A stretch of 64,000 nucleotides of DNA from Actinomycetota bacterium. Its GTDB lineage: Bacteria > Actinomycetota > Acidimicrobiia > Spongiisociales > UBA4744. Below are positions 45,001 through 54,000 of the stretch, piece after piece. Every line of letters starts with the position of its first letter. The first letter of the stretch is position 1. Made by a program: the position numbers. The stretch spans positions 1 to 64,000 of the forward strand of contig JAADGS010000063.1 in assembly GCA_013152275.1 (NCBI GenBank), in the 5' to 3' direction.

Positions 45001-48000
45001 CGACCTAAGGTCGCGATACGGAATACCAGGCACCGGAGTAGCGAATAAGGGGAACGAAGCGAGCCTGTGTGCTCGAGTCGACATCCCCAACCGGAGATCG
45101 CCATACTGCGCCGCGTGGAACATCCTCCACTTCCCAGAGGAACCGTCGTCCTGCCCGGCACGAACATCGAAGGCGCATGGACGCGCTTCTATCCGTTCGA
45201 GGCGTTGCACCATCTCCATTCGATCTGCAACCCGATGTCCTCAGAGGATCTCGACCGCCTCGTCGATGTTCTCGATCCTCGAGACGGAGACCAGGCGCTC
45301 GACCTCGCATGCGGCCACGGCGAACTCCTCAGACGCCTTTCCCGGCGCGCCGCCATCGGGGGAACCGGGGTGGATCTCTCCCCGTGGGCGCTGCGACGAG
45401 CCACAACACACTCGACGGCGATTGCCTGGTGGCTCGGGGACGCCGCCGAAGTTCCCGAAGTGCCGGACTGGGAGATCGTGACCTGTCTCGGCGCTTCGTG
45501 GATCTGGGATGGCTTCGCCGGTACGGTATCTTCCCTCGCGGCCAGGGCCACATCCGGCGGTCGGATCGCCATTGGAGACCTTCGACTCGCGACGCCACAC
45601 GCTCGCGAAGCTCTCGGCAACGCCCCTGAGGCGGCCTCGCCCACCGAGGACGAACAGCTCGCAACGTTGCGGAGTATCGGACTTCAACCGGTCGAACAGA
45701 TCGTCCCGGACCCGCAAGCATGGAAGACCTACCACGACCTCGTCATCGAGTCTGCCGAGGCCTACGCCGCCAGACATCCCGAGGATCCGGCCGCAGACCA
45801 CAGAGCCATGGCCCGAGCGTGGATGCACAACGACTACGAGCGTCTACGTGCCCACCTCGCCTGGACCGTGTGGGTGGCGCGCACGCCGTGAGTCATACCG
45901 CCGGCGCAGGCACAGGACGGCGGCCCGTCATCTTCAAGAAAGCGACGAGCACCGGGATCAGGTATGCCCAGTAGCCGCCGAGCGTCAGTAAAGACGGGTT
46001 GTACGAGATGCCGAAAAGTGCCTTGGCGAAGCTGCCGAACAGGCTCGTGGAAGGGTCGAGAAACCCGAGCGTCCACACGTGCTCGACGACCACCGGCAGA
46101 AAGCCGGCCTCCTGAAACTCGTGGATCCCCTTGCCGATCAGACCGGCGGCCACGACGACGATCAGAGTCCCCGTAATCCGGAAGAAGAGGCGCAGATCGA
46201 TCCGGCGGCCTCCTCGATACACGAGATATCCGATGCCGACCGCAACGATCAGACCGAACAACCCGCCGACGAATTGAACACCCTGAGCCTCGACTCCCAC
46301 CGCAACCGAAATCATGAACAGTGCCGATTCAAGCCCCTCTCGCAGCACCGCCACGAACGCAACCGCCGCGAGGCCAAGCATGCCGCCGGAGGCGAGAACG
46401 GACCCGGCTTCGTTCTCGAGGTGCGCCTTGAGTAGATGCGCCCTGCTCCCCATCCAGAAGATCATCCATGTCAGCAGTCCTACTGCGGCGAGTGCCACAG
46501 CCCCTTCCGCAATCTGTTCCGCACGACCTTCGAGCGATCCGATCGTCCGGAAGATCACTGCACCCGCGACCAGTGACACACCCGCTGCGGCAGCGGTCCC
46601 GGACCAAACCCAACGCACCCCCCGGTATTGCTTCGACCGCACGAGATAGGCAAGCAGGATCGCGACGATCAGGGCTGCTTCGACTCCTTCACGGAGCATC
46701 ACCAGGAATCCGGCCATAGGACGACGCCTCCATCGCTGAAAGCATCAGCCTATTAGCACTACGCGCGTAGTGCGAACCATATGATCGCGCTCACGCCCTC
46801 ATCGGGTTCGAGGTCGCGGGAACACCCCACCGCCTCGCCGGCACTCGGCACTTCCCCCTGAGGGGAAGACAAACCCTGGCGCTCTCAGCCGTTCTGGACG
46901 GATCGGATGTAGTCCAGGACCGCCCGGATCTCCTCATCGGAGAACGCCGGCATGGCCGTGCCCGCCACACCGTTCTCGATGGCTCCAAGTAGTTCTGCGT
47001 CGGGATCACCGGCCGCAGGCGAGTTCGCATCGAGAGCCTTACCGACACCACCCTCCAGATTCGCGCCATGACAGGCGGCACACTTCGCCGTGTAGATCGC
47101 CTTGCCATCGACGCCGCTCGAAGGCGCCGTCGTGGCGGTCGACCCGCCGCTCGAACACGCTGCTACCAGCAGCGCCAACACTGCAATGACAATGACCATG
47201 CGTCTCATGGATTCCTCCCCTTGGCAGGTCGAAACCTATCACGCAACACGGGTTTGTGGGGCCAACACCGCCTCAGGTCCTTGCTTCCTCCAACGCAGAT
47301 CGGGAGAAACCGAGTCGGATCGAAGACATCCCCATCACTTCGGCTCGTTCCTCGCCGAGCCCACATCCCCCTGAGGGGAAGACAAACCCTGGCGCTCTCA
47401 GCCGTTCTGGACGGATCGGATGTAGTCCAGGACCGCCCGGATCTCCTCATCGGAGAGCCGCTCCACGCCGGCATGGCCGTGCCCGCCACACCGTTCTCGA
47501 TCGTCCCGAGTAGTTCCTCGTCGGGATCACCGGCCGCAGGCGAGTTCGCATCGAGAGCCTTACCGACACCACCCTCCAGATTCGCGCCATGACAGGCAGC
47601 ACACTTCGCCGTGTAGATCGCCTTGCCATCCGGTCCGGCTGCTCCAACGGTGGTCGTGGTACCGCCTCCGGTGGCGGACGGTGCCGCCAGTGGCTCCCGC
47701 CAGTTCGGACGATCGGGTGCGCCCTTTTCCAGCGAGCGCAGGTAGGAGGACAAGGCATTGATCTGTTCGAGGGTGAACGGACCGTTGAAGTCCTGCAGGT
47801 AGGCACTCATCTGCGTCCCCGGAATACCGACCGAGACGAGCGAGCGAATCTGCTCGTCTGACACCGAGCCGAGAAACTGCTTCGAATTGAGTGCAGGACC
47901 GATCCCCCCGGTGGCGTTCTGGCCATGGCAGGCAGCGCAGTTCTGCACGAAGAGTTCATCACCGGTGGCAATCAGATTGGCGACATGCTGCGCTTTTGCC

Positions 48001-51000: not shown

Positions 51001-54000
51001 CACCTCAAAACCTTGATTGGCGTTGAGGAGGAACTCGACGGCCTTCAAGACGCCATCTGCGTCGCCTCCGGGGATGTCGAGACCGCGTCCCAAGAACGCG
51101 CCGAACGACAAGAAGACGGCGTCGTGACGCTCTCGTAGTTGATCCAGCGTGACATCGGCACCGAGTCTCGTATTCAGCTGCACCTCGACACCCATGTCGA
51201 CGATTGCACGGATCTCCGCCGCGAGCAGGCTTCGATCGAGGCGATATTCGGGAATGCCGAGAACCATCATCCCGCCGAGAACTCCCGTCGCTTCATACAC
51301 CGTCACCTTGTAGCCGAGACGTCGCAGGTCGTGCGCCGCCGACAGCCCTGTCGGCCCACCACCTACGATCCCCACGCTGTAGGGGAGATCGACGAGTGGT
51401 GCTCCAGCCACTTCCTTGTACATGTCGCTGCCTGCTTCGACCCCGTACCTCTCGGTGACGAACCTCTTCAACGCCCGAATGGCGATCGGCCGGTCGATCT
51501 CCCCCCGGCGACACTCGTCTTCGCATGGTGCAGCGCACACACGACCGCAGACCGAGGCAAATGGGTTCGGCAACCGGGCGGTCAAATAGGCGAACTCGTC
51601 CTCACCGTCCGCGATGGCGGCCACGTATGCGCCTGCGTTCGTGTGAACGGGGCATGCGGCCAGACACGGGATGTTCTCGTCGTAGAACTGGAGGGGCCCG
51701 ATCGTCATATCTTCTGCGCCTTCTGCAGGTGGCGAAGCGCCACCATACCGACCGCCAGCGCCGTAAACCAGACCCCCGAGACCACAATGTCCTGGACGGC
51801 TCTCGGGGCGCCGGAGATCGGGGCCACCTTGAACAGCACCGAAGGCAACCACACGGTCATGAGGAAGAAGGAGAAGAACAGGACGAAGGCGCGCGCATAC
51901 GCGCCTTTCCAGGTGAACGATTCGTGACCCGGTTTCACGACCATGACCACGAATCCTTCCGAGCGGACGAGGGCTGTGAAACTACCCGACGGGACCCGAA
52001 GCCACCGGCCTCTCGATGCACCGCACCGTTGCACTCGAAGAGAACTTCCACCGTGGATGCGAGCAACATCAAGCGGACCATCGGTTCTCTCCCTCTCGTG
52101 AACGCGTGCATCATATCCCCGTGTCTGACCGTACCTCTGGCTGTCGTCTTCGAGCGCTCGGGAACTCGCAGATTCGAGCCGGCCATCCGAGCCTACCGCG
52201 CAACGGATCATCAGCGAACTCGAATACTATGACACGAGGATCCTTATTGATAAGATCCACCAATCCCTAGGCGATAACGGGGTCGAGGGAATAATGATCG
52301 GAGGGATCATGAGACGGACCCGCCTTTTCGCCGTGCTGTTTGTGTTCACACTTGTCGCTGCCGCCTGTTCGAGTACAGCCGAGACGACAACGACCACGAC
52401 ACCGGTACAGACGACGACAACGACGAAAGCCGCCACCACGACAACCGCCATGAAGGTCGCCCAAGGAGATGTCGTCAAAGGCGGCCTCTTGTACGACAAG
52501 TGGTGGAAAGCCCTCGGTATCGACGAGCCATCCGGCGACATGCCACTGTGGGCAACCCAGAGTACGAATACCCGATCCGGAGCCGCCACCTGGCGCTGCA
52601 AAGAGTGCCACGGCTGGGACTACAAGGGCGCCGAGGGTGTCTATGCCTCCGGTTCCCACGCGACCGGATTCCCCGGAATCTGGGATGCGCGGTCCAAGTC
52701 GTATGACGATTTGAAGGCCATCCTCACGACGGGGGATCACGATTTCTCCGTGATGGGCGACGCAGCCCTGGAGGACTTGATCACGTTCGTCCAACAGGGC
52801 CTCGTGGACACGTCGAAGTACATCAACGCCGACAAGACCCTCATCGGGGCCGATCCCGACCGAGGCGACGGACTCTTCGACAGTGCCTGTGCGGCCTGTC
52901 ACGGTGCGGACGGCACGACGATCAATTTCGGTTCTGACGAAGAGCCCGAGTTCGTGGGTACCGTCGCATCGGACAACCCGTGGGAAGCGCTTCACAAGAT
53001 TCGCGTCGGCCAGCCGGGCGCGGCGATGCCGGCGGCGCTGAACGGCGACTGGACCATCCAGGACATGATCGACGTCATTGGCCATGCCCAGACGTTCCCC
53101 ACCGAGAAGACCGGGGAGGATCTGAGCGCAATAGCGTTGGGCGGCAGACTCTACGACAAGTGGTTCAAAGTCGCGGGCGTGGACGCGCCCGACGGCGACA
53201 TGCCGCTGTGGGCAAACCAGTCCACGAACACCCGTAGCGGCGCCGATACCTGGCGCTGCAAAGAGTGCCACGGCTGGGACTACAAGGGTGCCGACGGTGT
53301 CTATGCCTCCGGTTCCCACGCGACCGGATTCCCCGGAGTCTGGGATGCACGAGACTGGACCAGCGAACAGATCGTTGCCCAGATCTCCGGCAAGAACGAC
53401 CCGAATCACGACTTCTCGCCGTATCTGTCCCATGACCAGCTGCACGCACTCGCCGTGTTCATCACCAACGGCATGTTCGACAAGTCGACGCTGTTCGATC
53501 CGGCCACGAAGACACCCACGGCAGGCGATGCCGCCGAAGGGAAGAAGCTCTACGACGCAGGATGCGCGGCGTGCCACGGTGCGGACGGCACGCAGATCAA
53601 CTTCGGTGACGACGCCGAACCCGAGTATGTGGGGACGGTCATGGTCGACAACCCGTGGGAAGGTTCGCACAAGATCATGTTCGGCCAGCCCGGAACCGGT
53701 ATGCCGACCGGGATCGAGAGCGGCTTGAGCATCGAGCAGCTTCTCGACCTGATCAAGTACATGCAGACGTTCCCGACCAGCTAGAGACCCTCGCCAACAT
53801 CGACAATTGCGGCCCCCGGATTGCCGGGGGCCGCTGCTTTGGTAACGTCGCCCCATGGCACTCGGAGTCATCCTCGCCGGCGGAATGTCACGACGCATGG
53901 GAACCGACAAGGCACTCGTCGACGTGGCCGGACGCCCCATGGTCGAATGGGTTGCCGCAGCACTCCACCGCGTGTGTGACACGACGATCGTCGTCGGCCG

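Follow-up and report, generated by a model that had tools for sequence, protein, structure and literature searches.

A two-helix protein predicted from a Rieske/cytochrome b6–flavoprotein operon is also fused to the nitrate reductase subunit NarI in an Actinomycetota genome

To our knowledge, no assay has ever been made of quinone-based bifurcation to NAD(P)+, which is still a proposal. The feeding of nitrate reductase by complex III is suspected in Streptomyces, and we know of no docking part for it. The core pairing of a Rieske/cytochrome b complex with an NAD(P) oxidoreductase is not new, being already in print for anammox bacteria and for subfamily G. The anammox complexes Kustd1480-1485 and Kuste4569-4574 share with the locus described here a split cytochrome b6 and subunit IV, an APWY-type site, a homologous FAD/four-cluster oxidoreductase with Lys at the proximal cluster, an interface His, an Arg-Lys pair and a Ser-type Rieske protein (PMC12954380). 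They differ in the haem cn Cys and Glu, neither of which is present here (PMC12954380), in their five-helix subunit IV (173 aa here), in their hexa- and octahaem cytochromes (mono- and dihaem here) and in the small subunit before the flavoprotein; the partners here are an oxidase or Nar. The nucleotide site is xLE with a 34-aa insertion (NAD) here and YRR (NADP) in Brocadia. The Brocadia locus L230 served for this comparison, and L190, titled Kuenenia, was left out as unlike an anammox locus. The subfamily G/APWY clade, as far as the accessible parts of PMC5600118 and PMC4122944 describe it, agrees in motifs and tree position, and an NAD(P)-binding Fe-S oxidoreductase is said there to co-occur with subfamily G 'in many other cases' (PMC5600118). 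Those parts describe no NAD-type branch that lacks haem cn and has a two-helix subunit with its fusions, and our literature search, with most subscription papers beyond reach, returned no paper on one. The linkage has been described far outside the anammox group (PMC5600118, section 9), and the accessible part of PMC4122944 already lists a split APWY-type cytochrome b for an acidimicrobial genome. The occurrence in Actinomycetota, which an earlier survey of this genome had proposed as new, is therefore a range extension.

The window, the whole stretch of 64,000 nucleotides analysed here, carries an operon for a two-helix membrane protein, an FAD/4x[4Fe-4S] flavoprotein, split cytochrome b6 and subunit IV, a Rieske protein and c-type cytochromes, together with the following neighbours.

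46885..47208, minus strand: lipoprotein monohaem cytochrome c (g544), recent copy of g545's second domain
47398..48134, minus strand: membrane-anchored dihaem cytochrome c (g545), from its cytochrome c domains
48127..48630, minus strand: Tat-type Rieske [2Fe-2S] protein, 167 aa, CPCHGSKF, from its Rieske domain
48627..49148, minus strand: subunit IV, 173 aa, Cytochrom_B_C, APWY quinol-oxidation motif
49151..49909, minus strand: four-helix cytochrome b6, four haem His, YLGV replacing CxGG
49906..51708, minus strand: FAD/NAD(H) flavoprotein of StnC/DsrL-like layout, from Pfam domains and cluster ligands
51705..51944, minus strand: two-helix membrane subunit, 79 aa, no family name, C-terminal remainder of an earlier cytochrome c fusion
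51945..52081, minus strand: decayed remnant of a signal peptide and NarC-type cytochrome c domain, from DNA alignment to G002
52294..53784, plus strand: divergent lipoprotein cytochrome c with four CxxCH, in the place of the relatives' oxidase operon
55732..56631, minus strand: NarI, all four haem His present, with a fused C-terminal two-helix copy (55735-55959)
56628..62271, minus strand: narG, narH and narJ, cytoplasm-facing Thermus-like nitrate reductase, from sequence comparison
62268..63074, minus strand: NarC-like dihaem cytochrome c, first gene of the nar operon, from sequence comparison

All seven open reading frames of the operon were confirmed on the minus strand, and their domains are those that the survey had given. 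Its description of genes overlapping by a few bases holds for the ATGA junctions of two-helix gene and flavoprotein, flavoprotein and b6, and subunit IV and Rieske, and fails at b6 and subunit IV, where there is a 2-nt gap. The Rieske gene (48127-48630) overlaps the cytochrome c gene (start 48134) by 8 nt. The overlap of g545 and g544 (47205/47208) depends wholly on a frameshift at 47456 that is absent from contigs of two public runs, and this 4-nt gap in g545 is probably an assembly error. At the DNA level g544 duplicates the second haem domain of g545 (96-100%), and the sister genome G002 showed no such copy; in one public run a contig skips the 513-nt copy, and the duplicate is possibly strain-variable. 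Scans of the operon for Rex, FNR, sigma-70 and terminator signals gave nothing exceeding chance.

The sequences indicate that placement in Rieske/cytochrome b subfamily G (APWY clade) is right. Cytochrome b6 is of the four-helix, split type, with haem His 108, 122, 209 and 224, and KAPWYF in subunit IV is invariant (17/17). The cytochrome b tree, with a midpoint root and only three outgroup rows of other types, placed it in a 40-row group with anammox, planctomycete and Ktedonobacteraceae sequences (99/99). H39 and R229-K230 are invariant in all 24 aligned b6 sequences; their counterparts in a Brocadia b6 are His62 and Arg266-Lys267, the residues given for a dimer-interface haem that is itself known from a model only (PMC12954380). 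The interface His is not specific to flavoprotein loci, because just three of the 45 CMGG-type b6 loci picked for this His have a flavoprotein within 4 kb. YLGV replaces CxGG and Y57 aligns with Cys35, so that the haem cn ligand is missing; His46 of subunit IV stands where cn-bearing relatives have Glu (compared with locus L238). The haem cn Cys is missing in 23/23 flavoprotein-linked rows (Actinomycetota, Acidobacteriota and Kryptoniota), all of them xLE, while the two rows with CMGG and a readable flavoprotein motif are both YRR; row L077_3468, whose flavoprotein label was a proximity artefact, was left out. CxGG is also lost in flavoprotein-free split cytochromes, namely in the C9 operon of the same genome and in haloarchaea, and its loss is therefore no proof that the inner quinone site is lost. 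The Rieske protein has the Ser and lacks the Tyr, as in anammox Kustd1480. The anammox complexes have a high-potential Rieske protein (> +300 mV), the one of this type having been measured at +335 mV, and the S-F type is graded 'Mid+' in the accessible part of PMC4122944. Ser is found in all but one (Thr) of the flavoprotein-linked Rieske motifs listed, and Ala or Gly in those of two flavoprotein-free operons; the Ser type accompanies the whole APWY clade. A predicted complex of b6, subunit IV and the two-helix protein, two copies each, scored 0.19 and was given no weight.

The flavoprotein contains Fer4_20, Pyr_redox_2 and two C-terminal Fer4 domains, in agreement with the survey's finding, and is 33% identical over 596 aa to a Brocadia protein. 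Its cluster ligands are C15, C19, C54, C58, C62, C66 and K81 together with C515 and C518, in addition to a C-terminal 2x[4Fe-4S] ferredoxin. The nucleotide site has SLE where the NADP type has YRR, and an insertion of about 34 aa. Under the YRR/xLE rule (PMC10482914, PMC7596348) these features point most likely to NAD(H) rather than NADP(H), which narrows the NAD(P) assigned by the survey. K81 at the proximal cluster is invariant, and the Glu ligand of the bifurcating subunit NfnB/SudA is not present; a Lys ligand there marks the non-bifurcating StnC (PMC10482914). No NfnA/SudB partner gene lies inside the operon. StnC shares the Lys-ligated proximal cluster and non-bifurcating FAD (PMC10482914), and the NAD-specific DsrL-1A shares the C-terminal ferredoxin and S-L-E motif, with an insertion of about 32 aa (PMC7596348). 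The DsrL layout of N-terminal clusters, FAD/NAD(P) core and C-terminal ferredoxin is found here as well, although the Cys pair of the distal cluster is placed C-terminally. The neighbouring genes encode cytochrome b6, and we therefore did not file the protein as DsrL. The partner is a membrane cytochrome b6, unlike the HydBC-like subunits or DsrAB that accompany StnC, NsoC and DsrL-1. The flavoprotein was detected in 144/401 genomes of the order (E<=1e-100), about a third rather than the quarter estimated earlier, and the cn-less flavoprotein-linked branch occurs also in other Actinomycetota and Acidobacteriota. NuoF was found in 60/61 relatives; the flavoprotein is therefore no substitute for complex I, and replacement of NuoEF was rejected. 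A separate nfnAB-like pair sits on contig C33.

The 79-aa membrane protein gene reported by the survey exists, but as a remnant: it is the tail of a gene for cytochrome c plus three helices (about 240 aa) that is intact in G002. DNA alignment with G002 revealed deletions of 66 nt and 254 nt upstream of it, with loss of CxxCH, and contigs of public runs X1 and X2 span both without gaps. The gene now has its own start behind GGAAGGA, and its dN/dS against G002 is 0.36. The protein matched no Pfam or NCBIfam family and nothing at 0.9 or above in the ESM Atlas. What appears to be new here is that NarI carries, fused at its C-terminal end, a second copy of this two-helix subunit of the b6 operon (39% identity, E 4e-16). 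The extension shows 4 non-synonymous and 10 synonymous changes, a pattern that indicates purifying selection. This double occurrence hints that the b6 complex and nitrate reductase might be physically coupled. The module is present in 30/32 flavoprotein genomes versus 1/29 others, that one a remnant (G055, with the N-terminal paralogue only, was dropped from 33 flavoprotein matches), and stands directly upstream of the flavoprotein in 16/17 more distant Actinomycetota loci. Among 150 cluster representatives, 28 of which were verified by Pfam, 91 are free, 29 are cytochrome c fusions, 6 are NarI fusions and 24 are other or partial. The cytochrome c fused to it in relatives is of the NarC type. 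The NarI fusion was not seen in 70 of the 73 NarI-bearing genomes of the order. A distant homologue (E 2e-4) precedes a flavoprotein-free b6 in the genome analysed here. The module does not correspond to the two extra helices present in longer forms of subunit IV (probability 0.3% when its profile was compared with that of one acidobacterial form), nor to the product of the small gene that precedes the flavoprotein in anammox bacteria, a different protein with one helix.

The narGHJI genes, preceded by a gene for a dihaem cytochrome c, lie 3.8 kb from the operon, consistent with the proximity and the cytochrome c gene noted in the survey. NarG lacks a Tat signal, NarI keeps four His and the dihaem NarC gene comes first, as in Thermus-type NarCGHJI. 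NarG is 72-75% identical to proteins of Thermaceae, Meiothermus and some Chloroflexota loci, and the NarC-like protein shares 43% identity, in its first domain, with the cytochrome c that is joined to the two-helix subunit in G002. The Thermus thermophilus NarCGHJI and Nrc respirasome likewise has a dihaem NarC first and an NADH-linked flavoenzyme encoded nearby (PMC7694296). In that system NarC takes the place of complex III and Nrc belongs to the type II dehydrogenases, whereas here NarI carries a Rieske/b6 subunit. Coupling of nitrate reductase to Rieske/cytochrome b is also described for Nar1 with bcc-aa3 in Streptomyces coelicolor and for haloarchaea (PMC7931247, PMC3509893), but those systems have a long cytochrome b from a different clade and lack both a flavoprotein and a shared fused subunit. 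Thermus NarC binds NarI, and Streptomyces Nar1 co-purifies with bcc-aa3. Across the 401 genomes of the order, 67/73 with NarI have the flavoprotein compared with 77/328 without NarI, counts that overstate the association because kin are not independent. G622, G564 and G680 have narGHJI directly upstream of the two-helix gene and flavoprotein in one same-strand run, and G514 has the order oxidase, NarC, a haemless NarI with the two helices, flavoprotein. The commoner neighbour of the operon in relatives is a haem-copper oxidase. As the survey reported, this genome has cytochrome bd and no PF00115 oxidase. Absence of the haem-copper oxidase is a trait of the genus (0/3 genomes), while 57/61 relatives have one. 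Through the NarI fusion, co-occurrence and shared operons, the nitrate link has better support than the survey had for it. By a simple midpoint sum, the reaction with cytoplasmic NarG stalls at 129-149 mV and that with an oxidase at 257-273 mV. Both electrons cross the membrane to a cytoplasmic NarG, and with a stall near 130-150 mV nitrate is therefore a weak driver; alone it could barely pay for NAD+ reduction.

The observed genes, motifs, fusions and co-occurrence can be combined in a menaquinol-to-NAD+ bifurcating complex with a two-helix tether, to which we give slightly less than an even chance. The survey was right as to class, and on the path residues, the Ser-type Rieske, the lost haem cn and the NuoF kept in relatives its bifurcation reading is still the best single guess, with the direction unproven. 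A dimeric subfamily G Rieske/cytochrome b6 complex would bear the NAD(H) flavoprotein on the cytoplasmic side and oxidise menaquinol at the outer site. One electron would pass through Rieske, cytochrome c and the NarC-type cytochrome c to a terminal enzyme. The other would pass from haem bP to bN, the interface haem (His39 of both monomers) and the ferredoxin domain, then through two more clusters and FAD to NAD+, and complex I could re-oxidise the NADH. Complex formation, the interface haem (a model only) and the cofactor rules are taken from literature on relatives. The two-helix protein would be a core subunit that tethers the NarC-type cytochrome, as direct fusions and oxidase-linked relatives suggest; in this genus it may act through NarI, with nitrate reductase as electron sink in place of the lost oxidase. 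The fuller version is unlikely as a whole: a modular supercomplex whose cn-less b6 dimer lacks an inner quinone site and forces the low-potential electron to NAD+, with the Q-cycle closed via complex I and a two-helix plug docking either the oxidase-feeding cytochrome c or, by the NarI fusion, nitrate reductase.

The strongest competitor, still on the unlikely side, is that the flavoprotein is an NADH dehydrogenase module feeding menaquinone via the interface haem at the inner site, in a self-contained, respirasome-like NADH:cytochrome c chain to nitrate or O2. The NAD-type site fits, the hosts look heterotrophic or mixotrophic, the reaction is downhill with any acceptor including nitrate, and the Thermus nar cluster encodes the NADH dehydrogenase Nrc, a partner of NarI; the wiring and tether evidence is identical for both directions. 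The genome gave neither a form I/II RuBisCO-grade match nor an ACS, so that a need to make NADH is not clear, which speaks against the bifurcating reading. However, such input would waste the pumping of the retained complex I, an argument made also in PMC12954380, and requires an inner quinone site, although b6 and subunit IV have lost the cn Cys and the Glu ligand. Reverse electron transport, with donors on the cytochrome c side (nitrite via Nar, or periplasmic donors) reducing menaquinone and NAD+ at the expense of the proton motive force, seems very improbable. APWY-type complexes have been suggested to run in reverse, Nitrobacter uses a similar narC-nar cluster for nitrite oxidation, and oxidase, nar and the flavoprotein/b6 operon are clustered in several relatives; against this, the genus has no haem-copper oxidase, neither CO2-fixing family searched gave a recognised enzyme, and NarG is closest, among the matches listed, to heterotroph-type Thermus/Chloroflexota loci.

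Somewhat less improbable than reversal, but a poor candidate, is a normal Q-cycle complex whose flavoprotein is loosely bound or has a regulatory role, nar being merely co-regulated low-oxygen genes and the NarI extension harmless read-through. The narI gene directly precedes the two-helix gene in three genomes, an easy route to such a fusion, NarI is mostly unfused, and most CMGG-type relatives have no adjacent flavoprotein. Yet the extension is conserved (dN/dS 0.15), the NarI fusions form six clusters below 50% identity, and haemless NarI scaffolds retain the two-helix module and the NarC gene next to an oxidase. The flavoprotein itself has a dN/dS of 0.07, with b6 directly 3' in 29/30 loci.

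In the cn-less branch the main ambiguity pointed out in the anammox enzymes, a haem cN beside a possible quinone-reduction site, does not arise. Lacking haem cn, having small cytochromes and being common, it is therefore a cleaner object for a bifurcation test. If the bifurcating reading is true, menaquinone heterotrophs would gain more charge from each quinol by sending electrons in a loop via complex I. With the fused module there is a genetic handle on how nitrate reductase may draw electrons from complex III. NosZ, NirK, NirS and NrfA proper were not found in the genome. An octahaem protein of the tetrathionate reductase family is encoded in it.

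The seven reading frames of the flavoprotein operon have the positions and domains that the survey gave them. The survey's headline was the novelty of a quinol-bifurcating complex in Actinomycetota. A complex of this class is encoded there, and its occurrence is better described as an extension of range. What distinguishes the window is that the complex has a subunit in common with NarI, to which it is fused, and that this occurs in a genus whose oxidases have been lost. Through this two-helix subunit NarI is a putative binding partner of the complex. The operon and the features next to it are as follows.

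46885-51944, minus strand: operon for the two-helix subunit, flavoprotein (600 aa), cytochrome b6, subunit IV, Rieske protein and cytochromes c
51705-51944, minus strand: two-helix subunit (79 aa; the module)
48127-48630, minus strand: Rieske gene, followed by a cytochrome c gene whose start is at 48134
36776-43714, convergent on the operon: [NiFe] uptake hydrogenase and maturation genes
45893-46717, directly downstream of the operon: FTR1 iron permease
52294-53784, divergent from the operon: lipoprotein with two repeats and four CxxCH, 87% identical in the sister genome G002 and a remnant in the congener G001

The last two operon genes have about 260 nt in common (96-100% identity). Compared with G002, the first cytochrome c copy (g545) lacks 4 nt, resulting in a frameshift, and the second lacks 12 nt. 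Contigs of public runs carry both missing stretches. The gaps therefore probably arose where the assembly went wrong at a repeat, and a normal dihaem protein is the likely product of g545. In one public run a contig lacks the second copy. The public runs covering most of the window belong to one study, and the source sample may be among them.

The flavoprotein is present in 32 of 61 near relatives (one paralogue excluded), and cytochrome b6 lies directly downstream of it in 29 of 30 of their loci. The relatives bearing names are Acidimicrobiia. Across the order, 144 of 401 genomes encode the flavoprotein, and across the phylum 20 of 401 do; b6 and subunit IV follow it in 16 of the 17 new loci of the phylum. 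Acidobacteriota and Kryptoniota have it too, there with the Rieske gene in between. Two unpublished genomes (G023 and G034) enter only the denominators, for flavoprotein, module, oxidase and NuoF among relatives and for flavoprotein and NarI in the order. It is already on record that subfamily G cytochromes are often accompanied by oxidoreductases of this kind (PMC5600118). In the passages covered, a genome paper on order UBA5794, which is not established as the window's order, mentions neither bifurcation nor Rieske (PMC12008989).

The last 75 residues of the window's NarI match the 79-aa protein at 39% identity, and this extension is conserved relative to G002 (dN/dS 0.15). In a profile search, 30 of the 32 flavoprotein genomes had the module, and so did 1 of 29 flavoprotein-free relatives, G001, in which it is a remnant and from which NarI proper is absent. 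Of 17 distant loci, 16 have the module upstream of the flavoprotein. Its 150 cluster representatives comprise 91 free proteins, 29 cytochrome c fusions, 6 NarI fusions and 24 other or partial forms. In the cytochrome c fusions, the cytochrome is homologous to the first domain of NarC (43%); in the window's genome the cytochrome part has decayed and the helices are kept. Judging from the five helices of NarI and the signal plus one helix of the cytochrome, both fusions would place both module ends in the cytoplasm.

NarI was found in 73 of the 401 genomes of the order. The flavoprotein occurs in 67 of those 73 and in 77 of the 328 without NarI, counts that include kin and are not independent. 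Among 12 regions picked for such links, narGHJI, module and flavoprotein are consecutive on one strand in G622, G564 and G680; in G514 an oxidase and NarC stand at the head of the operon together with a haemless NarI that carries the module as a fusion; and G026 has a similar cassette separate from the operon. The NarI-like proteins of G514 (locus L303, 6448-7599) and G026 (L066, 9856-10764) have lost most or all haem His, retain the fused module and are encoded after oxidase subunits II and I and a NarC-like cytochrome. They are possibly scaffold-only forms of NarI. Precedents for a Nar link are the NarC-NarI contact and Nrc dehydrogenase of Thermus (PMC7694296), Nar1 with bcc-aa3 in Streptomyces (PMC7931247) and the Rieske/cytochrome b-Nar clusters of haloarchaea (PMC3509893).

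Haem-copper oxidase is present in 57 of 61 relatives and in none of the three members of the window's genus, which is rich in periplasmic sinks. By eye, 14 of 32 flavoprotein genomes have the flavoprotein no more than about 2 kb from an oxidase subunit I; four of these subunit I sequences contain HPxVY, and we take them to be B-family. Behind the operon-adjacent oxidase, some relatives (L069 15967-18330, L061 10480-12708, L071) encode a fusion of about 780 aa that joins cytochrome b to a 2x[4Fe-4S] ferredoxin, an MvhD/HdrA-like part and, at its C-terminus, a cytochrome c; the window's genome lacks this fusion. On contigs C26, C64 and C71 the window's genome has many multihaem cytochromes with 6-12 haems, together with an octahaem tetrathionate-reductase-family protein and a molybdoenzyme resembling tetrathionate reductase.

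Cytochrome b6 retains four haem His. Haem cn is lost: Tyr57 replaces the Cys35 of b6f with which it aligns and subunit IV has His in place of the Glu of a cn-bearing relative. In a 43-row tree the window's b6 groups with anammox, planctomycete and Ktedonobacteraceae sequences, and by sequence it is a member of the subfamily G / APWY clade. His39 and Arg229-Lys230 are invariant (24 of 24 aligned rows) and align with His62, Arg266 and Lys267 of a Brocadia b6, the numbers given for a modelled dimer-interface haem leading to the oxidoreductase (PMC12954380). Flavoprotein-linked rows lacking the Cys have the NAD-type motif xLE in 23 of 23; where CMGG is present and the motif can be read, it is the NADP-type YRR (2 of 2). 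Over-reading is cautioned against by the CMGG loci selected for the interface His, only 3 of 45 of which have a flavoprotein within 4 kb, and by Ser-type Rieske proteins being a trait of the whole APWY clade (PMC4122944).

Among solved structures, the flavoprotein is closest to the N-terminal modules found in Stn/Nso-type enzymes, which match better than SudA/NfnB. Lys81 occupies the position of Glu in NfnB, and in StnC the same Lys accompanies a non-bifurcating FAD (PMC10482914). Any bifurcation would therefore take place at the quinol site and not at the flavin. Compared with the Brocadia protein, SLE replaces YRR and 34 residues are inserted, the pattern of NAD-specific DsrL-1A (PMC7596348); from these homologues we read the flavoprotein as NAD(H)-specific. 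Armatimonadota homologues (L099, L109, L113) have the insertion and no cytochrome b6 in the fetched flanks.

The direction of electron flow, bifurcation or input, is a prediction from sequence. We tentatively favour bifurcation with tethered acceptors, in which the two electrons of each quinol would be divided equally between NAD+ and the acceptor. With an oxidase as acceptor, the stall force calculated from midpoint potentials and an assumed pump ratio is 257-273 mV; for periplasmic nitrite reduction it is 168-208 mV, and for cytoplasmic NarG 129-149 mV. Bifurcation to NAD+ would thus have ample driving force in the majority, which is oxidase-linked, and a marginal one in the window's genus; there it would require either a low force or the octahaem reductase of another contig. 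NADH input through the flavoprotein is somewhat less likely. NuoF occurs in 60 of 61 relatives, so this route would be redundant with complex I, yet could still operate. Mere co-regulation of the genes is improbable, and reverse transport is more doubtful still.

One contig carries two complex I gene sets, one in the window (11475-21244) without an obvious NADH module, and a full nuoA-N just upstream of nar (C10 66320-80976). A weak RuBisCO-family match (C39 30859-31365) resembles RuBisCO-like protein more than carboxylase. The same genome has a second Rieske/b6 operon without flavoprotein (C9 4963-16525), with Rieske CPCHNG, b6 TLGS and a subunit IV that carries a seven-haem fusion; several cytochromes with 8-11 haems come after these genes. 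In G024, an operon of this type is directly upstream of the flavoprotein operon. A third b6/subunit IV set, apparently split across contig ends (C99 10518-12132 and C10 85920-86402), lacks the interface His and is preceded by a distant homologue of the two-helix module.
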